Shown here piece by piece: positions 36,824 through 56,963 of a stretch of 64,000 nt of DNA (positions are counted from its first letter, which is position 1; every line of letters begins with the position of its first letter). The DNA is taken from assembly GCA_016297645.1 (NCBI GenBank), contig JAEDGF010000002.1:5266-69265 (forward strand), in the 5' to 3' direction. Source of the stretch: Clostridiaceae bacterium. GTDB taxonomy: Bacteria > Bacillota > Clostridia > Oscillospirales > Acutalibacteraceae. Under the pieces are notes generated by a model. It made no database searches, had not been told where the DNA came from, and worked only from the letters and a program-made list of their open reading frames with translations. A program made the translations under genes and the position numbers.

Positions 36824-38314
36824 TTATCCGTTTTCTTTTTTGCGTATTTCAGAGAGGATTCTGTCGTATTCCTCTTCGTCTATTTTGTATTTCTTCGAAA
36901 TTACATAGAATCCGATTCCCATGAACACGACTGGCAGAACCGTCATTACGCAGCGGAGCGCAAGCGTCATTCCGTCGGAAGCTTCCGATAAGATGTTTTC
37001 GATATAAGACGCTTTGTATTCAACCGTCCAAACCGAAGGATCCGAAATAGCCGAGTTTTCTGCGGCTGAAATTTTGTTCGTTATATCCGTAAGACCTATC
37101 GCAAGATACACGACCATAATAATGACCTGTTGAAGCGAGCTCGACAGCTTCGCCATAAACGGACGGACAGAGAATATAAGAGCTTCGTTTCTTTCGCCTG
37201 TCATAAGCTCGTTGTATTCGATTGTATTGGAAAGGCAAATCGCACCTATGAGATAGAACAGCGAATACCCGAGTCCGATAAACAGCGATTCAGCGCAGAG
37301 AAGATAGAACGAAAGCTTCGGGGAGGTGATGAGTGTACCGGTGAGCATAAATGCCGCATAGCCGCAAATTGTAAGCGCAAACGAAATTCTGACGATTTGA
37401 ATTCGTTTGAGAACCTTTGTAAGCAGCGGATATATAACAAAGCTGATTCCTGATGCCGCACCGTAAAAAACAACAAACAGCGTTGTAAAAGAGCCTTCGT
37501 AACCGTAGGAAAGATAAATGTAGTTAGTTCCGAAAGCGGTGAGCAGTGAACCGCTCATGTTTACGAACAGAAGCATGACGGCTGTCCACAGAACCTGTTT
37601 GTTATTAAACAGTATCTTTATCATCTGTTTGAAGCCTGTTTTTTCGGATGATACGGCATTTCTGAGCGGCTTTTCTTTGACCCCGGCGCAGACAAATGAC
37701 TGACAGCCGATGAAAAGAAGAGCAATAACGATAGAAACCACCTTGTAGCCTGTTACTGCGCTGTTGCCGATCGCGAGCTTACCGACAGTGAGAATGGGAA
37801 TAAGTCCGTTTGCAAGTATCGTTCCCAGCCCGGAAAAGAGATTGGACATAGAGGTGATGACATCGCGTTCGCGCGGCTCGCTTGTAAGCGACGGCAGCAT
37901 TGACCAGTAGCCGATATCGTTCATCGTGTATGTCATGTCCCAAATTAGATAGAGGAAAGTGAAGGCAATGACAAAAGCCGACCCTTTGAGCGGAAGCGAA
38001 AAAATAAGCACGAGTACAATGGCGTTTGTAATTGCGCCTATGAGTATCCACGGCTTGAACTTACCGAACTTTGAACGGGTGTTTTCAATAATTCCGCCCA
38101 TTATAGGGTCGTTGATTCCGTCCCATATACGGCAGATTACCATAATAATGCTTATTGCGGCAAACTGACCGTCGGTAACATCTTTTGTGTACAGAATAAA
38201 TGTAAGTAAAAAGTATGTATACAGTGAGTAAGCAAGGTCGCGTCCTACGCCGCCGAGGCTGTATATCCATTTGTTGCGTGCAAAAAAGTTCCCGGAATCG
38301 TTTTTCTTTTTCAT
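36824..38314 (-). CDS. Glycoside-pentoside-hexuronide (GPH):cation symporter family transporter
   Basis: 496 aa with about 12 TM segments. GPH-type N-terminus (KWIYSLGGVGRDLAYSL, RIWDGINDPIMG). Confidence 0.8.
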   Translation of the reverse strand: MKKKNDSGNFFARNKWIYSLGGVGRDLAYSLYTYFLLTFILYTKDVTDGQFAAISIIMVICRIWDGINDPIMGGIIENTRSKFGKFKPWILIGAITNAIVLVLIFSLPLKGSAFVIAFTFLYLIWDMTYTMNDIGYWSMLPSLTSEPRERDVITSMSNLFSGLGTILANGLIPILTVGKLAIGNSAVTGYKVVSIVIALLFIGCQSFVCAGVKEKPLRNAVSSEKTGFKQMIKILFNNKQVLWTAVMLLFVNMSGSLLTAFGTNYIYLSYGYEGSFTTLFVVFYGAASGISFVIYPLLTKVLKRIQIVRISFALTICGYAAFMLTGTLITSPKLSFYLLCAESLFIGLGYSLFYLIGAICLSNTIEYNELMTGERNEALIFSVRPFMAKLSSSLQQVIIMVVYLAIGLTDITNKISAAENSAISDPSVWTVEYKASYIENILSEASDGMTLALRCVMTVLPVVFMGIGFYVISKKYKIDEEEYDRILSEIRKKENG

Positions 38315-43702: not shown

Positions 43703-45796
43703 ATGAGATCGGTGAATGAATTCTTCGGCTGCGATGTATTTGGCGACGATGTAATGCGTGAACGGCTTCCGCATGATACATACAAACAGCTGCAAAAAAC
43801 CATAAAACAGGGTAAGCACCTTGAACTCGGCGTTGCAAATATCGTCGCAAACGCAATGAAGGACTGGGCTATCGAAAAGGGCGCCACTCACTTTACTCAC
43901 TGGTTTCAGCCGATGACGGGTATTACCGCCGAAAAGCACGATAGCTTCGTTACACCTGCCGGAAACGGAAGAATCATAATGGAGTTCTCCGGCAAGGAGC
44001 TTATTCAGGGCGAACCCGATGCTTCGTCCTTCCCGTCGGGCGGTTTGCGTGCAACATTTGAAGCACGCGGTTACACGGCATGGGATGCGACTTCGTACGC
44101 CTTTATTAAAGACGGTGTTTTATGCATTCCTACCGCTTTTTGTTCCTACGGCGGTCATGCACTCGACAAAAAGACACCTCTGCTGCGTTCCATGGAAACG
44201 CTCAACAGACAGGCACTTCGCGTTTTGAAGCTCTTCGGAAATGATGATGTGAAACGCGTTGATGTTACGGTCGGTGCGGAACAGGAGTATTTCCTGATCG
44301 ACAAAAGTGCATTTGAAGCGCGAAAAGATCTTATTTATTCGGGGCGTACGCTTTTCGGTGCGAGAAGTCCGAAAGGACAGGAACTGAGCGACCACTATTT
44401 CGGAGCTATTAAGCCCCGTGTTCAGGCATTCATGACCGAGCTTGACGAAGTCTTGTGGAAGCTGGGTATTCCGGCAAAAACCGAGCATAATGAAGTTGCT
44501 CCGGCTCAGCATGAGCTTGCCCCCGTTTACGAAACAACAAATATCGCGGCAGACCATAATCAGCTCACAATGGAGCTTATGCAGAAAATTGCAAGAAAGC
44601 ACGATATGGTATGTCTGCTCCATGAAAAACCGTTTGCCGGAGTAAACGGCAGCGGCAAACACAACAACTGGGCGCTCGCTACCGATACCGGCGTAAACCT
44701 GTTGAATCCCGGTGATACGCCTGCCGAAAACGCACAGTTCCTGTTGTTTTTGTGCGCCGTTATAAAGGCGGTCGACGACTATCAGGACATTCTGCGCGCA
44801 AGTGTTGCATCAGCCGGCAACGATCACCGGCTCGGCGCTCAGGAGGCACCGCCCGCTATCGTTTCCATCTTTTTGGGAACGGAGCTTACCGAAATTCTGC
44901 ACGCTATCGAAACCGATACGCCCTACGGCGGCAAAGAAAAAGAGCTTATGCGCGTTGGCGTTCACACTCTGCCGAAGTTCCCCAAGGATTCCACCGACAG
45001 AAACCGCACTTCACCCTTTGCTTTTACGGGAAATAAATTCGAGTTCAGAATGCTCGGTTCGTCCGATTCCGTTTCGGAAGCCAATGTTGTTCTCAACACA
45101 TCCGTTGCCGAGGAGCTGCGTCAATTCGCCGATGAGCTTGAAAAAGCGGACGACTTCGAAGTTTCTCTTCATTCTCTCATAAAGCGCGTTATTTCACAGC
45201 ACAAGAGAATTATTTTCAATGGTAACGGTTATGACGAAGCATGGCTTTTTGAAGCCGAAAAGAGGGGACTGCTCAATCTCAGAACGACTCCGGACTGTCT
45301 TCCTTGTCTTATAAAGAAAAAAAACATCGAGCTTTTCACTTCTCATAAAGTATACTCTGCCGAGGAGCTTCATGCCCGTTATGAAATTCTCACAGCGAAT
45401 TACACGAAAATAATCGGCATAGAAACACTTACAATGCTCGATATGGTCAACAAGGACATCCTGCCGTCCGTTGCGCGTTTTTCCGGCGAGCTTGCGGATG
45501 AGGCGCTTGCCAAAAAGTCGCTGCTGCCCTCTGCCGATTGCCGTTACGAGGAAACGCTTGTTCGCGAGCTGTCCGAACTCTCCGGCGCGGTATTTGCAAA
45601 GAAAAACGAGCTTGAAGAGCTTGTCGCTGCCGAGAGTGACTGCCCGGATAACACCTCAGCTGCGATTTTCTGCAAGGAAAAGCTTATTCCGTGCATGACA
45701 GAGCTGCGTATACTTGTGGATGAGATAGAAACAAAGACGGACGCTTCTTTCTGGCCGTATCCGTCTTACGGCGAAACTCTTTTCAGCGTAAAATAA
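43703..45796 (+). CDS. glnN: Glutamine synthetase, type III (copy 1)
   Basis: 697 aa. [37 protein letters not shown] and [18 protein letters not shown] are type III GS hallmarks. Confidence 0.9.
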
Positions 45797-47517: not shown

Positions 47518-49035
47518 TTACTTCTTGATTACGATACCTTTTTCAAGTCTTGCTTTTTCAAGGTCTTGAAGCATTTTTGTCTTTTTCTCGCCGGAAATCG
47601 AGTAGAACAGAATCGGGATTATGCATAACAGTAAACTTACTCCGGGGATTATCGAAACAAGCGAGAACATTGCAAAGTTCTGTTGTGTGGTAAGTTCTGT
47701 TGCTGCTTTGATTGCAGTGTCATTGACCATTTCTTCAACCGGGAGCTTTACAAGTATATAAACTATAACGATACCGCAGGTGGCAAAGGCGTTGCCGATT
47801 TTGTTTACAAAACCCTGGCAAGCCGAGCCAAGCGCATTGTCACGGAATCCGGTTTCAAGTTCCATATAGTCAAGACAGTCGCCGATCATCGCGTAGCAGA
47901 TAACATTCAGAACGCCGAGAGGGAAGCTCGAAATGATCATGAACGGAATGCAGGCGTACAGGTTCTGTGTAAACCAACCGATAAGTGTTGTCCCGAGCGT
48001 TGCTGCCGAGCCTATAAGGCAGGTGGTTATAACGAGTTTCTTGTAGTCGAATTTTTTCATGAGTACCGGCATGAGAAGCATTGCTCCGAACATACCCACA
48101 AGTGCGCAGACATCGAGAATGAGCTTTATTCCCGTTACACTGCCGTTAACTGCGGAGTTTATCGCCGCTTCAAGCTGGGTCTGATCTCCGTTGAACTGAT
48201 CGAGTGTGATTTCGCTCAGGGGTTTGCCTATGTAGAAAGCGTAACGCGCCACATGGAGGGACGCCGCCTGTATCATGTATCTTCCGCAGGAGAGGATGCC
48301 CATTGCAATTACGAGCATAAGTGGCTTGCACTTAAATATTCTCGCAAGCTTTCCGGGTTCACCCGGTTTTCTCTCACGATAGGGGATAACAACGCGCTCT
48401 TTTATGCATCTCGTGGAAACGGTGTAGAGCGTTCCGCCTATGATAACAGATGCAAGAACCATGATAAAATATTTTGTTTCTTCATATTTTATCGAGCCGC
48501 TCGACATGAATTTCGGCAGAATAAAGTTTACGACATAGAGAAGTATCATCGGTATTGCCGAGCCGACGCCGTTTACGGTTCTTCCCATCGAGAAAACGCT
48601 GCCGCGCTCCTGAGCGTTCGGTGTCATAACATTCGGGAGCGACCAGAACGGCACATCTGCCATAGTGTAGAGCATTCCCCAAGCGACATAAACAACAGCC
48701 GCATAGACCATTTTTCCGGTAGATGAAATATCGGGGCAGTAGAACATAAGAATTGTGACAATACTTATAGGTATTACAGCCCATACAATAAATGTTTTTA
48801 TTGATTTACCCTTGCCTGCGCGTCTGTCTGCTATTATTCCCATGAGCGGATCGTTGATAGCGTCCCAAACTCTTGCAAGCAGCATAAGCAAAAGAACGAA
48901 CATCAGCGGAACTTGAAGTACATTGATGTAGAAGTCGCTTATGTACGAGGACATCATTGCATAGATCATTCCCTGACCGGCAGCGCCGACAGCGAACATC
49001 CGAAATTCTTTTTTTGATACATATTTGTCGTCCAT
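47518..49035 (-). CDS. GPH/MFS-family glycoside-cation symporter (second copy in the window)
   Basis: 505 aa, polytopic, with RVWDAINDPLMG (GPH signature region). AGAGGT lies before the ATG. Confidence 0.8.
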   Translation of the reverse strand: MDDKYVSKKEFRMFAVGAAGQGMIYAMMSSYISDFYINVLQVPLMFVLLLMLLARVWDAINDPLMGIIADRRAGKGKSIKTFIVWAVIPISIVTILMFYCPDISSTGKMVYAAVVYVAWGMLYTMADVPFWSLPNVMTPNAQERGSVFSMGRTVNGVGSAIPMILLYVVNFILPKFMSSGSIKYEETKYFIMVLASVIIGGTLYTVSTRCIKERVVIPYRERKPGEPGKLARIFKCKPLMLVIAMGILSCGRYMIQAASLHVARYAFYIGKPLSEITLDQFNGDQTQLEAAINSAVNGSVTGIKLILDVCALVGMFGAMLLMPVLMKKFDYKKLVITTCLIGSAATLGTTLIGWFTQNLYACIPFMIISSFPLGVLNVICYAMIGDCLDYMELETGFRDNALGSACQGFVNKIGNAFATCGIVIVYILVKLPVEEMVNDTAIKAATELTTQQNFAMFSLVSIIPGVSLLLCIIPILFYSISGEKKTKMLQDLEKARLEKGIVIKK

Positions 49036-49383: not shown

Positions 49384-49461
49384 ATGTTCGAAATTATTAT
49401 TAAGTATGCAAAAGCAGTTCTCGGCCTTTTCAGCGGATTGTTCGCATTCGTCCGTCAGTAA
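49384..49461 (+). CDS. Candidate 25-aa hydrophobic mini-protein (MFEIIIKYAKAVLGLFSGLFAFVRQ)
   Basis: ATG 49384 lies 7 nt after GGGGGGAA. One predicted TM helix. An intrinsic terminator follows 37 nt after the stop. It is below the ORF-track size cutoff. Confidence 0.3.
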   Translation: MFEIIIKYAKAVLGLFSGLFAFVRQ

Positions 49462-49497
49462 TCGGTTTTTTTGAAAACGAACAGTGTTTTGTTCTCG

Positions 49498-49530
49498 GCT
49501 TTCGGTTTTCCGGAAGCTTTTTTCTTTTTT
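49498..49530 (+). terminator. Intrinsic terminator after the mini-ORF
   Basis: gctttcgg / ccggaagc stem (one G-U pair) with a tttt loop, followed by ttttttctttttt. Confidence 0.7.
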
Positions 49531-49620: not shown

Positions 49621-49649
49621 TTGACTTTTTTTTGTAGTTTTGGTAAAAT
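49621..49649 (+). promoter_or_regulatory. Near-consensus promoter of the aminotransferase-transketolase operon (TTGACT-17-TAAAAT with TGg extended -10)
   Basis: -35 at 49621-49626 and -10 at 49644-49649, with TG at 49641-49642. Confidence 0.7.
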
Positions 49650-49702
49650 ACATGTGAATATTTTTGAGGGGTAACCCCCTTTCTACTTAGGAGGAATGAG
49701 TT

Positions 49703-50464
49703 TTGACTGATTCAAAAACACTTGCATACATCAATATGTATGCCGTACTCGGCACGCTTGAAAATCTCTGCGAGCTTGACGAGAACGCAAGAGCGCTTCT
49801 TACCAACAAAAAACTGATATCCATCGGATTTGATGTTAAGGGCGGTCCCGCTGCGACACTTATGTTCAAAAACGGCTATTGCCGTATGGAGGACGGCTGC
49901 CGCTCCGACTGCACTATCAAACTTCCGTTTTCTTCGTGCGAAAAGTTCAATGGACTTATTGACGGAACCGTGACACCCATTCCTTCAAAGGGACTTGTTC
50001 ATATCGGTTTCCTGCTTAAATCCTTCGTTCCGCTGACAGACCTTCTCTCAAAATATATGCGTCCCGATCCGGCTGACCTTGAAGACGAGCATTTCTTCAA
50101 CATAAGCACTTCTCTTATGTTTTATACCATTACCGTTGCTCTTTCACAGATAGGTAACAATGACGAAATAGGAAAGTTCAGTGCCGATCATATCGTAGAC
50201 GGCGACATCAAGATGTCCATCGCCGGCGGTCCCGCAGCTACCATTCGCGTACGCAACCACAGAATGATCACCGTTAAAAAAGCACCCGAAAAATACCGTG
50301 CAATCATGGAGTTCGGCGACATGAAGCTCGCCCGTGACCTGTTCGACGGAAAGGTTAATGCCGTTGCCTGCATAGGCGCCGGTACTATCAAGATGGGTGG
50401 TATGATTTCAATGATCGACAATGTCAACCGTATTCTTGACCGCGTCGGACTTTATCTTGCTTAA
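49703..50464 (+). CDS. Uncharacterised protein with SCP2 sterol-carrier-like segment(s)
   Basis: TTG start 8 nt after AGGAGG. The C-terminus MEFGDMKLARDLFDGKVNAVACIGAGTIKMGGMISMIDNV resembles the SCP2 signature (..GKLNP..A...GKLKI.G.M). The N-terminal half looks like a second copy. Confidence 0.45.
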   Translation: MTDSKTLAYINMYAVLGTLENLCELDENARALLTNKKLISIGFDVKGGPAATLMFKNGYCRMEDGCRSDCTIKLPFSSCEKFNGLIDGTVTPIPSKGLVHIGFLLKSFVPLTDLLSKYMRPDPADLEDEHFFNISTSLMFYTITVALSQIGNNDEIGKFSADHIVDGDIKMSIAGGPAATIRVRNHRMITVKKAPEKYRAIMEFGDMKLARDLFDGKVNAVACIGAGTIKMGGMISMIDNVNRILDRVGLYLA

Positions 50465-50480
50465 TTAGGAGGAAAGAACA

Positions 50481-51731
50481 ATGGCTTCAAAACATTACAA
50501 TTTCAAAAAAAGTCAGGAGCTTTATGCAAGAGCCTGCAAGGTTATCCCCTCGGGTCTTTACGGCCACCAGGGACCTGCCGAAGGCTGCTGGATTCCTCCT
50601 ACATCATGGCCCTTCTTCACCGAGCGTGCACAAGGCTCGTATTTCTGGGATGTTGACGGCAACAAGTACATAGACTATATGTGCGCTTACGGGCCCAATG
50701 TTCTCGGATATAACGACCCCGATGTCGATGCCGCCGCTCTCGCTCAGGCGAAGCTCGAAAACTGCGTTACCACTCCCTCGACAAAAATCCTTGAATTTGC
50801 CGAGTATCTTGTTGATACCGTTGCTTCTGCCGACTGGGCATTCTTTATGAAAAACGGTAACGATACCACACAGGGTGCTATCATGTGCGCCCGTGCATAT
50901 ACGCACCGCAAGAAGATAATCTTCATAAACGGTTTCTATCACGGTGTTTCCATGTGGACGCAGAAGATAGACTATCCCGGCGTTCTCCCCGAAGATGTTG
51001 CCAACAGCCTCTATGTTGACTGGAACGATTTTGAGGGACTGAAAAAGGTCGTTGAAGAAAATGAAGGCGAAATAGCGGCATTTATTTCGACACCTTATCT
51101 CCACGGCAATTTCGCGGACAATGTACTTCCTGCCGACGGTTATTGGCAGAAGGTAAGAAATCTCTGCACCGAAAAGGGTATCGTTCTTATCGTTGACGAT
51201 GTCCGTGCGGGCTTCCGTCTTGATATAGCAGGTTCCGACCATTATTTCGGATTCGAGGCTGATCTGATTTGCTTCTGCAAGGCTCTTGCCAACGGCTGGA
51301 ATGTATCCGCTCTCTGCGGTAAAGATTTCCTTAAATCGGCTATGAGCGGACTGAGCTACACCGGTTCTTACTGGATGAGTGCCATTCCGTTTGCTGCCGG
51401 TATCGCCTGCATTGAAAAAATGAAGAAGCTCGATACCCCCAAGATGTTCAGAGAAAAAGGTCTTAAACTTTGCGACGGTCTTAAAGCAGCGGCTGCAAAC
51501 AACGGCTTTAACCTTGTTGTTTCCGGTGAACCTTCGCTGTTCTATCTGCGTATAGCGGACGATGACTCGCTTCTTATCCATCAGGATTGGGTTCAGGAAA
51601 TGGTTCACAGAGGAATTTATATCACTTCTCACCACAACCACTTCATGAATGCTTCTCTTACCGACGAGGATATCGAGAGAACCATCGAAGTTGCCGACGA
51701 CGCATTCAAGGCAATTAGACCCAAATATTAA
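50481..51731 (+). CDS. Class-III PLP-dependent aminotransferase (glutamate-1-semialdehyde aminomutase-like)
   Basis: SQELYARACKVIPSG, DDVRAGFRL and the PLP-lysine context DLICFCKALANG. 416 aa. Confidence 0.8.
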   Translation: MASKHYNFKKSQELYARACKVIPSGLYGHQGPAEGCWIPPTSWPFFTERAQGSYFWDVDGNKYIDYMCAYGPNVLGYNDPDVDAAALAQAKLENCVTTPSTKILEFAEYLVDTVASADWAFFMKNGNDTTQGAIMCARAYTHRKKIIFINGFYHGVSMWTQKIDYPGVLPEDVANSLYVDWNDFEGLKKVVEENEGEIAAFISTPYLHGNFADNVLPADGYWQKVRNLCTEKGIVLIVDDVRAGFRLDIAGSDHYFGFEADLICFCKALANGWNVSALCGKDFLKSAMSGLSYTGSYWMSAIPFAAGIACIEKMKKLDTPKMFREKGLKLCDGLKAAAANNGFNLVVSGEPSLFYLRIADDDSLLIHQDWVQEMVHRGIYITSHHNHFMNASLTDEDIERTIEVADDAFKAIRPKY

Positions 51732-51821
51732 AAGAATTCAATGCTCTCTCTTCCCGGCAAACGGGAGGGGAGGGTTGAATATTGTTTATTCCCTTAACAA
51801 TTTTATCAAGGAGGAACAGAT

Positions 51822-52706
51822 ATGCCTTTAACAAAAACAGAGTGGCTTGCCCTTGAAAAAAAAGCTGATGAACTTCGCAACCTTACCCTTGACACAACTT
51901 TCTGGGCAGGAAGCGGACATATCGGCGGAGGACTCAGCGTACTCGACATTATGACAGTGCTTTACCACAAGTATATGCACATCAGAGTTGACGAACCCAA
52001 GTGGGAGGATCGTGACCGCTTTATTCTTTCAAAGGGTCATGCCGGAATCGCTTATGCTCCGGTTCTTTGCGACCTCGGCTTCAACGACAAGGAAATGCTC
52101 AAAACCTTCAACCTCTCCGGCTCAAAGATGGGTATGCATCTTGATTCAAACAAGGTCGTCGGCGTTGACGCATCCACCGGTTCTCTCGGTCACGGAATGT
52201 CCATTGCTGTCGGTACGGCTCTTGCCGCTCGCGTTTTGGGCAAAGACTATGTAACATATGTAGTTCTCGGCGACGGCGAATGCGACGAAGGCTCCAACTG
52301 GGAAGCTGCAATGAGCGCCTCTCACTACAAGCTCAAAAACATGATCAGCTTTGTTGACCGCAACAAGTGCATGATAGACGGCAGAACGGAAGATGTCATG
52401 AAGCTCGAACCTTTTGCAGACAAGTGGAGAGCGTTCGGCTTTATCGTTAAAGAAATCGACGGCAACAACATCTCCGAGCTTTGCGATGCTATTGATTTTG
52501 CTCTTGCAAACATCAATGATCCCGAAAGCGACAAGCCCGTTATGATAATCTGCGACACTCTTAAAGGCTGCGGCATCGACTTTATTGAGGATAACTATCT
52601 CTGGCATTACGGTGCCTTTGATGACGAAAAATATGCAAAGGCAAAAGAAGCTCTTAAAAACTCATACGCCAAGCGTGTGGCAAGAGCAGAAAAGGAGGGC
52701 AAATAA
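51822..52706 (+). CDS. Transketolase, N-terminal (TPP-binding) subunit
   Basis: GSGHIGGGLSVLDI, DRFILSKGHAG and GDGECDEGSNWEA. Confidence 0.88.
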   Translation: MPLTKTEWLALEKKADELRNLTLDTTFWAGSGHIGGGLSVLDIMTVLYHKYMHIRVDEPKWEDRDRFILSKGHAGIAYAPVLCDLGFNDKEMLKTFNLSGSKMGMHLDSNKVVGVDASTGSLGHGMSIAVGTALAARVLGKDYVTYVVLGDGECDEGSNWEAAMSASHYKLKNMISFVDRNKCMIDGRTEDVMKLEPFADKWRAFGFIVKEIDGNNISELCDAIDFALANINDPESDKPVMIICDTLKGCGIDFIEDNYLWHYGAFDDEKYAKAKEALKNSYAKRVARAEKEGK

Positions 52707-52708
52707 GT

Positions 52709-53737
52709 ATGGCAGGCGGAATGACTTATACGGCTATTGATTCCGAATCGCTTCAAACGGCAGAAATCTACGGTAAGGCTCTTGTTGAACTCGGTGAGGC
52801 ACATCCCGAGGTTGTTGCACTTACTGCCGACCTCGGAAAATCGACCAAAATAGGTGAATTTCAGAAAAAATTCCCCGACCGTTTCTTTAATGTAGGTATC
52901 GCCGAGCAGAATATGTTCGGTGTCGCCGCAGGTATGGCAAGAGCGGGACTCGTTCCGTTCCTTTCCACCTTCTCGCAGTTCGCTTCTCTCCGTTCGGCGG
53001 ATCAGCTCTCTACCGACCTTTGCTATCAGAATGTAAACGCTAAGGTTATAGCTACACATTCGGGTACATCTTTCGGTCAGGCAGGCTCTACTCACCACGC
53101 GATTTCCGACCTTGCGGTTACCCGTTCGTTCCCGAATCTTACGGTTATCTGCCCCGCAGACGGTATCGAAACATATCACGCGGTTATGGCTGCGTACAAG
53201 ACCCCCGGTCCGTTCTACATCAGAATCAACCGCGGTTTTGACTACACCCTTTACGGAAAAGACTGTGACTATTATGATCACGGTGAATTCGAAATCGGTA
53301 AGGCAAATGTATGCCATGAAGGCACCGACCTTACGATAATCGCTTGCGGTTCGTGCGTATATCAGGCTGTTCAGGCTGCGAAGTTCTTCGAGAATTCCGA
53401 AGAAGGCTTCAAGATCCGTGTTCTTGATATGCACACCATCAAGCCCATTGATAAGGAAGCAATAGTAAAGGCGGTCATGGATACACGCCGCATCATCACT
53501 GTTGAGGACCACAATGTTCTCGGCGGTCTCGGTTCTGCTGTTGCCGAAGTTGTTGTTGAGTCCGGTAAGGGCTGCGCATTCAAGAAGCTCGGTATACCCG
53601 ATCAGTTCGCACCTATCGGTCTGCATGAAGATATCATGGCTTACGAAGGTATCGACACAAACGGCATAATCAATGCCGTTCGTGAGGTAATGAAAGCTGA
53701 TTTCGAGCTTGATGACGACTGGGACGACGAGGTCTGA
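52709..53737 (+). CDS. Transketolase, C-terminal (pyrimidine-binding) subunit
   Basis: FFNVGIAEQNMFGVAAGMA, GSTHHAISD and the C-terminal domain. Lies 2 nt after the N-terminal subunit gene. Confidence 0.88.
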   Translation: MAGGMTYTAIDSESLQTAEIYGKALVELGEAHPEVVALTADLGKSTKIGEFQKKFPDRFFNVGIAEQNMFGVAAGMARAGLVPFLSTFSQFASLRSADQLSTDLCYQNVNAKVIATHSGTSFGQAGSTHHAISDLAVTRSFPNLTVICPADGIETYHAVMAAYKTPGPFYIRINRGFDYTLYGKDCDYYDHGEFEIGKANVCHEGTDLTIIACGSCVYQAVQAAKFFENSEEGFKIRVLDMHTIKPIDKEAIVKAVMDTRRIITVEDHNVLGGLGSAVAEVVVESGKGCAFKKLGIPDQFAPIGLHEDIMAYEGIDTNGIINAVREVMKADFELDDDWDDEV

Positions 53738-53766
53738 TAACATTTTACCGAAAGGATTGAATAGTT

Positions 53767-54579
53767 TTGGCATCTGATGCAATTTATACCAATAAAATAT
53801 TCCTTTGCGGTGCTTTGCCTCTTTTGAAAACCATTGTTGCGGACATTCCTTCTCTTAAAGAGAAGTTCAAAAATATTCACTGCATTTATCAGGTGAGCTG
53901 CCTTGATCCCGAAGCCCCTCAGGGCAAGTGGGCAACTCATTTCGTAGTAAACGGTGACGAGTGGCTCGTCCATGCCGATAAGGTTGCTCACCGTTTAGGC
54001 AAGCAGAAATATGTTGAACTTGAATTTAAGAGCGTTGATGCAATGAATGCCTTTTTTAAGGGTAAGATCGCTCCGAACACACTTCCGAAGATGAAGGGCG
54101 TTAACTTTGTCAAGGAGTTTGCCGTGTTTATGATGGCGCTTCTTAAAATGGCATCACTGCTCGGCATGACGGAAATTCCGGCAGATGAAGATACAAAGCG
54201 CCTTCTCGTTAAGTGCTATTTTTACCTTCTTTCGGTTGGTATAAGCACTCTTAACAAACAGGGACACAAGGAGATTCACGACTGGTGTCTTAAATCCCCC
54301 GACCGTGTTTATGCATGGAGAGTTGACGGAGAGGACTCCGTTTCGGCTTATATCCGCATAAAAGCAGGTAAGTCAAAGGCAGGTAAGGGCATCTACAAGA
54401 GAGCTATGCCGTTCTTCACAATGCGCTTTAATAATCTTGATTCCGCACTCGGAATTCTCATGTCCATTGATGATATGCTCGCATCCGTCAGAGAAGGCAA
54501 GCTCATCATGGAGGGCGCTCCCGAGTTCGGCGCACAGATAGGCGCATACATGATGCTTGTAGGCGCACTCGCAAAATAA
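53767..54579 (+). CDS. Uncharacterised protein, distant paralogue of 49703-50464 (SCP2-like)
   Basis: TTG start; no in-frame ATG until far downstream. Same two-lobe layout as the first gene. C-terminus MRFNNLDSALGILMSIDDMLASVREGKLIMEGAPEFGAQIG. Confidence 0.4.
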   Translation: MASDAIYTNKIFLCGALPLLKTIVADIPSLKEKFKNIHCIYQVSCLDPEAPQGKWATHFVVNGDEWLVHADKVAHRLGKQKYVELEFKSVDAMNAFFKGKIAPNTLPKMKGVNFVKEFAVFMMALLKMASLLGMTEIPADEDTKRLLVKCYFYLLSVGISTLNKQGHKEIHDWCLKSPDRVYAWRVDGEDSVSAYIRIKAGKSKAGKGIYKRAMPFFTMRFNNLDSALGILMSIDDMLASVREGKLIMEGAPEFGAQIGAYMMLVGALAK

Positions 54580-54671: not shown

Positions 54672-54699
54672 TTGACAAACGGAATTTTTTGAGTATAAT
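54672..54699 (+). promoter_or_regulatory. Consensus SigA promoter for glnN-2 (TTGACA-16-TATAAT)
   Basis: -35 at 54672-54677 and -10 at 54694-54699. Confidence 0.7.
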
Positions 54700-54714
54700 T
54701 CACGACATAAGGAC

Positions 54715-54763
54715 AAAGGCGTCCGGAACAGTTCAGTCTGTTTCGGCGCCTTTTTCTTTTTTT
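54715..54763 (+). terminator. First leader terminator-like hairpin downstream of the glnN-2 promoter
   Basis: aaaggcgtccggaacag / ctgtttcggcgccttt imperfect stem followed by ttctttttttt. Confidence 0.55.
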
Positions 54764-54786
54764 GAAAACTAAAAAAAGTGTAAATT

Positions 54787-54840
54787 AAACGGGCAATGGC
54801 GTCTATGTTTCATGAGGACGCTCTGCCCGTTTTTATTATT
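54787..54840 (+). terminator. Second leader terminator-like hairpin immediately before the glnN-2 RBS
   Basis: aaacgggca (54787-54795) / tgcccgttt (54824-54832), with inner stem ggcgtc/gacgc, followed by ttttattatt. Confidence 0.55.
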
Positions 54841-54860
54841 AAAAAGGAGGATGTATCATA

Positions 54861-56963
54861 ATGACTGCAAAACCCGTATCGGACTACTTCGGCTGCCTTG
54901 TTTTCGACGACAGAGTGATGAAAGCAAAGCTGCCCTCGAAGGTCTACTCATCATTGAAAAAGACTATTGACGAAGGTGCTTCTCTCAATAATGAAGTTGC
55001 AAACGCAGTTGCCGACGCCATGAAAGACTGGGCGGTTGAACACGGTGCGACCCACTTCACGCATTGGTTCCAGCCCCTTACCGGAATAACCGCCGAAAAG
55101 CATGACAGCTTTATTACACCGTCACCCGACGGCGGCGTTATTATGGAGTTTTCGGGCAAGGAGCTTATAAAAGGTGAGCCTGATGCATCTTCTTTCCCCT
55201 CGGGCGGACTGAGAGCAACTTTCGAAGCGAGAGGATATACGGCTTGGGATCCCACATCGTATGCCTTCATAAAAGATAAAACACTTTGTATTCCCACAGC
55301 ATTCTGCTCTTACGCCGGAGATGCGCTCGACCAAAAAACACCGCTGCTTCGTTCAATGCAGGCACTCAACAAACAGGCGCTTAGAATTCTCCGTTTGTTC
55401 GGCAATACGGAGGTTAAATGTGTCCGTACTTCGGTAGGCCCCGAGCAGGAATATTTCCTTGTTGATAAAGAGATGCTTGAAAAACGCAAGGATCTTCTTT
55501 TCTGCGGCAGAACGCTTTTCGGAGCAAAAGCACCGAAGGGTCAGGAAATGGACGACCACTATTTCGGTGTTATAAAGCCGAGAGTCGCAGCCTTCATGGC
55601 TGAGCTTAACGAGGAGTTGTGGAAGCTCGGTGTTCTTGCAAAAACGGAACATAACGAAGTTGCACCGGCTCAGCACGAGCTTGCTCCCATCTACACCACC
55701 ACGAACATTGCCACCGATCACAATCAGCTTACAATGGAGGTAATGCAAAAGGTCGCTTCGAAGCACGGTCTTGTTTGTCTGCTTCACGAAAAGCCCTTCG
55801 ATGGTGTTAACGGAAGCGGCAAGCATAACAACTGGTCTATGGCTACCGACACAGGTGTTAACCTCCTGACTCCCGGTGATACACCGTATGAAAACGCACA
55901 GTTTTTGCTTCTCCTTTGCGCGGTTATTAAAGCGGTTGACGATTATCAGGATCTTCTCAGAGTTTCCGTTGCAACGGCAGGCAACGACCACCGTCTCGGC
56001 GCGAACGAAGCACCGCCCGCTGTCGTTTCGATATTCCTCGGTGATGAGCTTACCGCAGTTCTCGATGCTATTGAAAAAGACGCGCCTTACAACGGTGCAG
56101 AGAAAACGGTGATGAAGCTCGGCGTTCACACACTGCCGAAGTTTATAAGAGATACAACGGACAGAAACCGTACTTCGCCCTTTGCGTTTACCGGAAACAA
56201 ATTTGAGTTCAGAATGCTCGGTTCCGCAAACAGTATCGCGACGACCAACATCATGCTCAACGCCGCCGTTGCAGAGTCGCTTAAAGTATACGCCGACCGT
56301 CTTGAAGGTGCGGAGGATTTTGAAACCGCCCTTCATGAGATGATTAAAAAGACCATAAAAGATCACAAGCGTATCATTTTCAACGGAAACGGTTATGACG
56401 ACGCATGGATTAAGGAAGCCACCGAAACAAGAAAGCTCCTTAACCTCAGAACGACTCCCGACGCATATCCCACTCTCCTTGAAAAGAAAAACACCGATAT
56501 GCTTACTTCTCACAAGGTCTTTTCCATGGCTGAGATTAAAGCCCGTTACGAAACCGGACTTGAAAACTATGCAAAAACAGTCAACATCGAAGGGCTTACA
56601 ATGGTCGATATGGCGGTGAAAGAGATAATCCCGGCAATCGAGGCGTATGTAAAAGATTTGTCCGAGAGCGTGGCGGTAAAGAAATCGGCAGTATCCGGAA
56701 TTTCGTGCAAGTGCGAAACCGCGCTTATCAAAAAGCTCTCTCTGCTTGAAGACGAAGCATACGAAGCAGCGGAAAAGCTTGAAACGGCACTTGAAAAGTA
56801 TAAAGCGATTGAAGATATTACAAAAGCAGCTTTCTTTATCAGAGATACCGTCATTTCGGATATGGCGGAACTAAGGAAATACTGCGACGAAGCCGAAACA
56901 CTAACGGCAAAGAAATACTGGCCGTTCCCCACATACGGAGATTTGATGTTCGGCGTAAAATAA
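54861..56963 (+). CDS. glnN: Glutamine synthetase, type III (copy 2)
   Basis: 700 aa and colinear with copy 1 ([55 protein letters not shown]). AAGGAGG lies before the ATG. Confidence 0.9.

Follow-up and report, generated by a model that had tools for sequence, protein, structure and literature searches.

Sphingoid bases are bioactive, antimicrobial gut lipids, and their disposal by anaerobic gut bacteria is largely an open question. To our knowledge, the only well-described route of sphingoid-base degradation is the eukaryotic-type pathway, which combines a kinase with a sphingosine-1-phosphate (S1P) lyase. Sphingopyxis sp. MTA144 has an aminotransferase, FumI (6HBS_A; PMC9858248), by which hydrolysed fumonisin B1, an analogue of sphinganine, loses its C2 amino group to pyruvate, giving a 2-keto-3-hydroxy compound that its authors likened to a simplified ketose (PMC3136697). 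The locus described here lies on a 64,000-nucleotide stretch (the window) of contig JAEDGF010000002.1 from a Clostridiaceae bacterium (GCA_016297645.1), and it encodes an aminotransferase of this type in an operon with a variant split transketolase (TK) and two proteins predicted to adopt tandem sterol carrier protein 2 (SCP2) folds. This cassette may be a cytoplasmic module for deaminating a lipophilic vicinal amino alcohol and cleaving off its polar head; the leading candidate substrate is a sphingoid-base-like 2-amino-1,3-diol such as sphinganine. The proposal is tentative and falls slightly short of an even chance. We infer the identity of the substrate, the direction of the pathway and the carrier function from the observed gene content, folds, synteny and active-site substitutions.

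The remaining components also have described counterparts. Specialised split TKs are encoded in the operons of the sulfo-TK (SqwGH) and apiose AptAB routes, which are catabolic and cleave an unusual ketose. Compared by gene content, those operons encode sugar isomerases together with reductases and exporters, and they lack aminotransferases and SCP2 proteins. No such isomerase, reductase or exporter partner was found with Pfam and NCBIfam in the window operon, which holds only the five genes listed below, and the separation of the locus from these routes made in an earlier note on this DNA is therefore kept. The Carboxydothermus hydrogenoformans split TK (6yaj/6yak) shares with the window enzyme the division into two subunits, with thiamine diphosphate (ThDP) and pyrimidine domains. 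Bacterial SCP2 folds are known from UbiJ and UbiT of ubiquinone biosynthesis and from the alkylsulfatase SdsA1, where they present hydrophobic substrates to enzymes. No account of the cassette turned up in literature searches that covered SCP2, transketolase, aminotransferase, sphingoid bases and the fum cluster in combination, so the operon still has no assigned pathway, as the note had held.

The operon consists of five co-directional genes:

49703-50464, forward strand: P1, open reading frame (ORF) of 253 aa with a TTG start; predicted tandem SCP2 folds
50481-51731, forward strand: AT, 416 aa; class-III pyridoxal phosphate (PLP) aminotransferase of FumI (aminopentol aminotransferase) type
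51822-52706, forward strand: TKN, 294 aa; N-terminal, ThDP-binding subunit of a split TK of a variant subfamily
52709-53737, forward strand: TKC, 342 aa; pyrimidine-binding and C-terminal domain subunit of the same variant split TK
53767-54579, forward strand: P5, ORF of 270 aa with a TTG start; distant P1 paralogue with predicted tandem SCP2 folds

The intergenic gaps are 16, 90, 2 and 29 nt. The ORF list and a promoter scan agree with the earlier note, which had described five co-directional genes with these positions and gaps behind an extended -10 promoter.

AT carries the class-III domain that had been read from its sequence (PF00202, Aminotran_3, E 8.7e-41), although it scores below every NCBIfam cut-off (236 bits against 525 for GntE; 207.9 against 527 for HemL, TIGR00713). 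Its closest PDB match is 6hbs, annotated 'aminopentol aminotransferase', to which it is 38.7% identical over residues 10-412 (E 1.2e-87, 297 bits), whereas glutamate-1-semialdehyde (GSA) aminomutases match only at about 1e-48. At the position where HemL has its GVNSPVR substrate motif (Arg32), the window AT reads GLYGHQ and its orthologues read G[LVI]YGH; this G-x-Y-G-H motif is common to FumI, the window protein and all cassette orthologues, and the PLP lysine is retained. By full-length similarity and motif, AT is FumI-type and not HemL. The earlier description of AT as GSA-aminomutase-like therefore stands for the class-III PLP fold and not for the type of substrate, since GVNSPVR is missing and the closest characterised enzyme is FumI. 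FumI, which shares the fold and the motif, itself acts on a long-chain 2-amino-3-hydroxy lipid with pyruvate as acceptor and yields an alpha-hydroxyketone, and from this homology AT is a putative deaminase of long-chain 2-amino-3-ols that uses pyruvate. FumI differs in its host, an aerobic alphaproteobacterium, and, the original fum cluster description aside, no SCP2 or TK partner is described for it in the literature searched.

The assignment of the next two genes to a split TK was likewise upheld by domain searches. TKN matches PF00456 (Transketolase_N, 5.4e-44) and TKC matches PF02779 (Transket_pyr, 1.4e-43) and PF02780 (Transketolase_C, 2.4e-27), with the split TK entries 6yak (1.1e-67) and 6yaj (3e-77) as their respective closest PDB matches. 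The best NCBIfam model, NF004559, gives 233.8 and 263.3 bits for the two subunits against a cut-off of 488 that is set for the full-length enzyme and is only partly a fair yardstick for separate subunits. Active-site residues were compared, in E. coli numbering, with the C. hydrogenoformans split TK, human TK and 100-102 cassette orthologues. The catalytic and cofactor residues His26, His66, His100, His261, His461, His473 and Glu411 are retained in the window and in these orthologues, and Ser385 and Arg520 are retained in the cassette TKC orthologues. Asp469 is replaced by Ala in 100 of 102 orthologues and by Gly in the other two, and is never Asp; Glu468 has become Q, S, A or T. In all 100 sequences Asn takes the place of Arg91, with which Asp469 forms a salt bridge, the GSLGQG motif reads GSLGHG in the same proportion (100/100), and Arg358 is Ala in 90 of 102. 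The canonical GEDGxxHQ motif thus reads G[QSAT][AG]G[STA]TH[HN] in cassette TKC proteins. The E. coli, human and C. hydrogenoformans enzymes all possess Asp469, Glu468, Arg91 and GSLGQG; unlike these canonical TKs, the cassette TK is always encoded together with SCP2 proteins and a FumI-like AT. The changes Asp469 to Ala and Arg91 to Asn provide a diagnostic signature for it.

Asp469 (Asp477 in yeast) reads the C2 hydroxyl of the acceptor, and Arg358 aids phosphate binding. In E. coli TK, a change at D469 abolishes the D469-R91 salt bridge and opens a pocket, and the substitutions D469T, R520Q and S385Y turn the acceptor specificity away from phosphorylated sugars and towards non-polar aldehydes (PMC5073344). 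The substitutions fixed in the cassette enzymes are of the kind that engineers use to obtain activity on aliphatic aldehydes. Because the phosphate binders Ser385, His461 and Arg520 are retained, a sugar phosphate probably still serves as one of the reaction partners, and the residue pattern as a whole suggests that the variant TK has one sugar-phosphate partner and one non-polar partner.

These motifs largely refute a housekeeping interpretation, in which a pentose-phosphate transketolase and HemL lie between two proteins of unknown function, and make it extremely improbable. Many Firmicutes have a split enzyme as their normal TK, the closest PDB match comes from C. hydrogenoformans, and AT does match HemL models. 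However, the HemL and TK NCBIfam scores are far under the curated cut-offs, the HemL substrate-binding motif is absent from AT, and the canonical Asp469 and Arg91 are absent from all the TK orthologues. Furthermore, across phyla the four partners vary together as one unit, and an E1 enzyme can take the place of the TK, as described below. The combination of HemL with a housekeeping TK was accordingly rejected on motifs and cut-offs.

The flanking proteins are less readily placed by sequence. P1 of the window gives a weak N-terminal match to PF02036 (E 0.0026; 18.5 bits against a gathering score of 21.3). An exhaustive HMMER search returned 493 representatives of the P1 family, clustered at 50% identity and nearly all of about 250 aa, one of which, from a Desulfobacteraceae metagenome-assembled genome (MAG), is named 'SCP2 sterol-binding domain-containing protein'. 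PF02036 is matched by 40 of 67 aligned family members (best E 4.5e-11), and the family profile matches rabbit SCP2 (1c44) at residues 153-242; the N-terminal Pfam match and this profile match together indicate two SCP2 domains in P1. Single-sequence PDB searches with P1 and with P5 yielded nothing meaningful. P5 of the window has no Pfam, NCBIfam or PDB sequence match, its family profile likewise matches nothing in the PDB, and the 120 listed of its 1222 homologues carry neither Pfam domains nor functional names. The profile of the P5 family nevertheless aligns with that of the P1 family over 226 columns (hhalign 98.3%, E 1.3e-14), and 12 of 27 P5-family members match PF02036 (best E 1.3e-5).

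AlphaFold models were generated for P1 (pLDDT 97.1) and for P5 (pLDDT 93.9), the latter on a mixed alignment of the P5 and P1 families. In Foldseek searches with either model, every PDB match at E <=1e-3 is an SCP2-fold structure. The matches to P1 cover about 110 residues each and include the C-terminal domain of SdsA1, UbiJ-SCP2 and sterol carrier proteins. Each match spans only one half of its query, which argues for two tandem SCP2 domains in both proteins; no solved structure was found that spans the full length of P1 or P5 (query TM-score <=0.36). According to the models and profiles, P5 is a distant paralogue of P1 and both consist of two SCP2 folds in tandem; in this architecture and in their partner enzymes they differ from UbiJ, UbiT and SdsA1, whose bacterial SCP2 folds are among the top structural matches. 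Their identification as SCP2-like paralogues, made earlier from the layout and an end segment, is thus considerably strengthened. The matched SCP2 structures include ones solved with a C16 fatty acid, 1-dodecanol or decane-sulfonate bound, and the fold together with the co-conservation makes P1 and P5 putative lipid carriers.

The five genes are conserved as a unit. For a close set, one genome per GTDB species was scanned, giving 195 stretches with a P5 relative, and 80 loci were kept; nearly all of these are from MAGs labelled Acutalibacteraceae, Oscillospiraceae, Ruminococcus or Clostridia/Eubacteriales, many of ruminant-gut origin. The full P1-AT-TKN-TKC-P5 order is present in 56 of the 58 Acutalibacteraceae loci with sufficient upstream sequence. 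Many public assemblies, some of them from the human gut, contain the exact P5 protein in the same context as in the window, and P5 relatives occur in rumen and hindgut MAGs. For a distant set, a remote subfamily of P1, at 30-36% identity to it, served as the seed of a metagenome scan, and 80 environmental loci were obtained, which extend the habitats of the cassette to sediments, bioreactors and hypersaline mats. AT directly follows P1 in all 68 distant loci with enough sequence, and the complete five-gene order is found in 20 of 31 long loci, at identities of about 50% for AT, 55-60% for the TK and 30-35% for P5. A gene order that recurs in this way in both sets is not due to chance. No P1 relative was found in a plasmid collection, and a horizontally acquired island was ruled out, since the GC content of the block (about 0.47) is the same as that of its surroundings.

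The exceptions in the distant set are informative. In 7 of the 11 remaining loci, P1-AT is flanked by an opposite-strand gene for an SCP2-E1alpha-E1beta fusion of about 870 aa (for example L084:12121-14724; also L089, L090, L091, L097, L099 and L111), which replaces the missing TK and P5. Its E1alpha and E1beta parts are of the 2-oxoacid/acetoin-type ThDP dehydrogenase, and its SCP2 domain is supported by Pfam (E 3e-4 to 1e-2) and by hhalign against the P1 family (E 9e-5). The class of the acetoin dehydrogenase E1 (AcoA/AcoB) cleaves methyl alpha-hydroxyketones with ThDP; the fusion differs from it in joining alpha and beta in a single chain and in its N-terminal SCP2 domain. No gene for an E2 or lipoyl partner was seen near the fusion. 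The invariant core is therefore a tandem-SCP2 protein with AT. A ThDP enzyme joins this core as partner, and in every case it comes with an SCP2 module of its own, which is P5 or a fused domain. Some distant loci (L133, L128 and L138) show P1-AT-TKN, but neither TKC nor P5 is recognisable there at the thresholds used; the C-terminal subunit may have diverged, or ORF calling in high-GC DNA may have produced an artefact. Each cassette protein falls in a known superfamily. The TK subfamily without Asp469 and Arg91, the tandem-SCP2 proteins and the obligate pairing of these with a FumI-like AT appear to be undescribed.

TK and acetoin-type E1 enzymes share the ThDP-dependent cleavage of alpha-hydroxyketones. 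It follows that deamination should yield an alpha-hydroxyketone, which would make the amine a vicinal amino alcohol, and a lipid tail is indicated by the SCP2 folds and by the loss of polar TK residues. In the proposed pathway, AT would move the C2 amino group to pyruvate, giving alanine and a long-chain 1,3-dihydroxy-2-ketone, which would chemically be a ketose with a lipid tail. The variant TK would then take this lipid ketol as donor, break the C2-C3 bond, free a fatty aldehyde and hand the ThDP-bound two-carbon ketol to an aldose phosphate. P1 and P5 would bind the insoluble amine, ketol and aldehyde and shuttle them between the membrane and the enzymes. The SCP2-E1alpha-E1beta variant would suit 1-deoxy (methyl-ketone) bases. 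Sphingoid bases from the diet, the host and Bacteroidota are abundant in gut and rumen habitats, and the pay-off would likely be that antimicrobial long-chain bases are detoxified while nitrogen, a C2 unit and a fatty chain are recovered. The logic proposed in the earlier note, transamination followed by ThDP-dependent cleavage with SCP2 carriers, remains the best fit. Among the substrates that it offered, an amphiphilic amine is favoured over an amino sugar or aminopolyol, because the TK has lost residues that read hydroxyls and phosphate and because SCP2 modules stand beside every ThDP variant.

Two further described pathways resemble this scheme in part. The taurine pathway (Tpa-Ald-Xsc) also combines a class-III amine:pyruvate transaminase, an alanine dehydrogenase that recycles pyruvate and a ThDP enzyme that acts on the carbonyl product; unlike the cassette, it uses the acetolactate-synthase-like Xsc, has a small sulfonate as substrate and includes no SCP2 proteins. 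In prodigiosin synthesis, PigD and PigE are a ThDP C-C enzyme followed by a class-III aminotransferase, acting on a lipophilic carbonyl (a fatty aldehyde), and the PigE model is among the weaker NCBIfam matches of AT, far under its cut-off. That system differs in being biosynthetic, in using another ThDP enzyme family and in having no SCP2 proteins.

Genomic neighbourhood analysis of the relatives bears on the direction of the pathway. TetR regulators adjoin 12 distant loci and are also found in the Acutalibacteraceae set. An alanine dehydrogenase gene lies directly upstream of P1 in L124 and L125, and its family recurs in 5 distant loci. An extended short-chain dehydrogenase/reductase (SDR) with a weak fatty-acyl-reductase-type (NAD_binding_4) match precedes P1 in L092 and L102. 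Further distant neighbours are SNF, MFS and EamA transporters, an Fe-alcohol dehydrogenase, aldo-keto reductases and sulfatases. The TetR regulators, alanine dehydrogenase, transporters, Fe-alcohol dehydrogenase and aldo-keto reductases fit a regulated catabolic or detoxifying route that uses pyruvate and alanine and yields aldehydes.

Part of the same evidence can be read in the opposite, biosynthetic direction. In that case the TK would add a C2 ketol, drawn from a ketose phosphate or hydroxypyruvate, to an SCP2-held fatty aldehyde, and AT would aminate C2 with alanine as amino donor, forming a sphingoid-like 2-amino-1,3-diol independently of serine palmitoyltransferase (SPT). Both reactions are freely reversible, and TK-aminotransferase pairs occur in biosynthesis elsewhere, such as AniP with AniQ of anisomycin. 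The adjoining alanine dehydrogenase could supply the amino donor, the extended SDR before P1 in L092 and L102 has its weak NAD_binding_4 match, and the TK substitutions mimic engineered changes that admit aliphatic aldehydes as acceptors. The conservation in 56 of 58 close loci whatever the neighbours is also what a core function would show. However, the closest characterised aminotransferase, FumI, is catabolic and prefers pyruvate as acceptor, and TetR regulators and uptake-type transporters are common neighbours. Moreover, no N-acyltransferase, ceramide-synthase-like gene or aldehyde-generating reductase is co-conserved with the block, and sphingolipids are not known from Oscillospirales. 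A biosynthetic role is thus unlikely; if true, it would mean an unrecognised class of amino-diol lipids in anaerobic Firmicutes, Desulfobacterota and others.

The neighbours in the close set are of a different kind. In about 31 Acutalibacteraceae loci (e.g. L014:1178-3904), a divergent TetR gene, a class-II aldolase/epimerase of 404 aa with two tandem Aldolase_II domains and a second, GSA-aminomutase-like aminotransferase of about 492 aa lie just upstream of the block. At L064:2094-7863 the aldolase and the second aminotransferase stand directly before TKN-TKC-P5, replacing P1-AT. None of this set (TetR, class-II aldolase, second aminotransferase) was found in the 64-kb window, where the divergent neighbour is instead an MFS_2/GPH symporter gene at 47518-49035 (Pfam).

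Such genes recall the import and catabolism of a hydrophilic amino sugar or aminopolyol, whose keto sugar the TK would cleave while the SCP2-like proteins served a structural or regulatory role. The divergently adjoining GPH symporter of the window would agree with this, as would the FucA/AraD-family class-II aldolase/epimerase, FGGY kinase and second aminotransferase near the block in many relatives and the retention of the phosphate-binding Ser385, His461 and Arg520. The symporter, however, is not a conserved partner: it adjoins the block only in L003 (86% identity), L028 (47%) and contigs of the same species; the other ~56 informative Acutalibacteraceae loci lack it, as do all the distant ones. 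The symporter and the control region that the earlier note saw it share with the block therefore lie outside the conserved unit (2 of ~58 Acutalibacteraceae loci, no distant one), and a GPH-coupled sugar operon was rejected on this ground. In addition, all orthologues have small or neutral residues in place of Arg91 and of Asp469, which reads the C2/C4 hydroxyl of sugars; AT falls in with a lipid-amine deaminase; and three independent SCP2 associations, including the E1 fusion, are hard to square with a soluble sugar. A sugar route is, on balance, quite unlikely.

Several observations weigh against the favoured sphingoid-base reading. The class-II, sugar-phosphate type aldolase and the second aminotransferase beside the block hint at sugar-phosphate-like chemistry, and Arg358 is retained in 12 of the 102 TKs. 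An SCP2 fold alone is no proof of lipid binding. The operon contains no ceramidase, glycosidase, fatty-aldehyde dehydrogenase or reductase, and its very wide conservation within the family would also suit a housekeeping or biosynthetic role. TKs make and cleave (3S)-ketols, and D-erythro-sphinganine would give a (3R)-ketol; fumonisin-type (2S,3S) bases would be the better stereochemical fit. Finally, the proven fumonisin transaminases are 61-75% identical to one another (PMC9858248), whereas AT and FumI share only 39%, so AT belongs to a separate subfamily.

Another hydrophobic amine might be the compound being detoxified, such as a fumonisin- or AAL-type mycotoxin backbone from feed, another lipophilic amino alcohol or an alkylamine, with the TK and E1 enzymes removing the reactive ketone or aldehyde. 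The homology of AT to FumI is consistent with this, many carriers are livestock rumen or hindgut MAGs, the (2S,3S) configuration of fumonisins would match the (3S) stereochemistry of TK, and the E1 variant would suit the methyl ketone 2-keto-HFB1 (HFB1, hydrolysed fumonisin B1). Against it, the cassette also occurs in sediment, bioreactor, hypersaline-mat and human-gut samples, where fumonisins are unlikely to be a selective force, and no FumD-like carboxylesterase is associated with it. Furthermore, a TK needs a 1-hydroxy-2-ketone as donor, which 1-deoxy fumonisin backbones do not provide. This explanation is accordingly regarded as distinctly improbable, and a sphingoid-base-like 2-amino-1,3-diol is kept as the leading candidate.

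Two control elements were located around the operon:

49621-49649, forward strand: presumed sigma-70-type promoter, TTGACT-17-TAAAAT with an upstream TG (extended -10); consensus scan 10/12 plus TG
54723-54756, forward strand: terminator-like hairpin (54723-54746) with a T-run, the first one past P5; terminator scan and direct reading

An AGGAGG sequence lies 7 nt 5' of the P1 TTG, and a GAAAGGA ribosome-binding site precedes P5. Public gene calls begin P1 at the codon-12 ATG (242 aa; region in question 49703-49738) and TKC at Met5 (338 aa; region 52709-52720). For P1 the TTG is the better start, as proposed earlier, because the invariant family residues A8 and N11 are encoded upstream of the codon-12 ATG, as is the AGGAGG site. 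The spacer between the GPH and P1 genes, which had been taken for a shared control region of 670 nt, measures 667 nt and holds further elements: a 25-codon ORF at 49385-49462 (MFEIIIKYAKAVLGLFSGLFAFVRQ) with GGGGGGAA 5' of it, and a terminator-like hairpin and T-run at 49497-49518, 3' of this ORF. The spacer is therefore more than a simple shared control region.

The hairpin at 54723-54746 is the probable end of the operon. Being just 3' of a separate promoter at 54672-54699, it may alternatively, or in addition, form part of the next gene's leader. That promoter is a perfect TTGACA-16-TATAAT, and a strong hairpin with a T-run starts within about 25 nt of it; a second hairpin (about 54790-54835) lies 5' of a type-III glutamine synthetase gene, and the region 54672-54860 looks like an attenuator-type leader. 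Rfam gave no family match anywhere in the window, and thus no riboswitch for the 5' spacer or the downstream hairpins. The glutamine synthetase gene (54861-56963) has a paralogue at 43703-45796, 66% identical and 9 kb apart, and the pair flanks a peptidase-E-like gene, a thymidine kinase gene, the GPH gene and the five-gene block. A second GPH-family symporter gene is present at 36824-38314 on the reverse strand, 29% identical to the gene at 47518-49035 over 151 aligned residues.

Roughly 195 GTDB species of Acutalibacteraceae and relatives carry the cassette, which also occurs in assemblies from the human gut and the rumen and in distant anaerobes of the environment. It constitutes a testable pathway candidate made of four defined protein families with an interchangeable SCP2-E1 variant. 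If confirmed, it would give a function to hundreds to thousands of 'hypothetical' tandem-SCP2 proteins, and it would reveal a new natural TK specificity, for lipid ketols or aliphatic aldehydes, that was previously reached solely via protein engineering. Its enzymes would also be relevant to fumonisin and sphingolipid detoxification. If the catabolic direction is true, this would be the first breakdown of sphingoid bases that needs neither phosphorylation nor S1P lyase.

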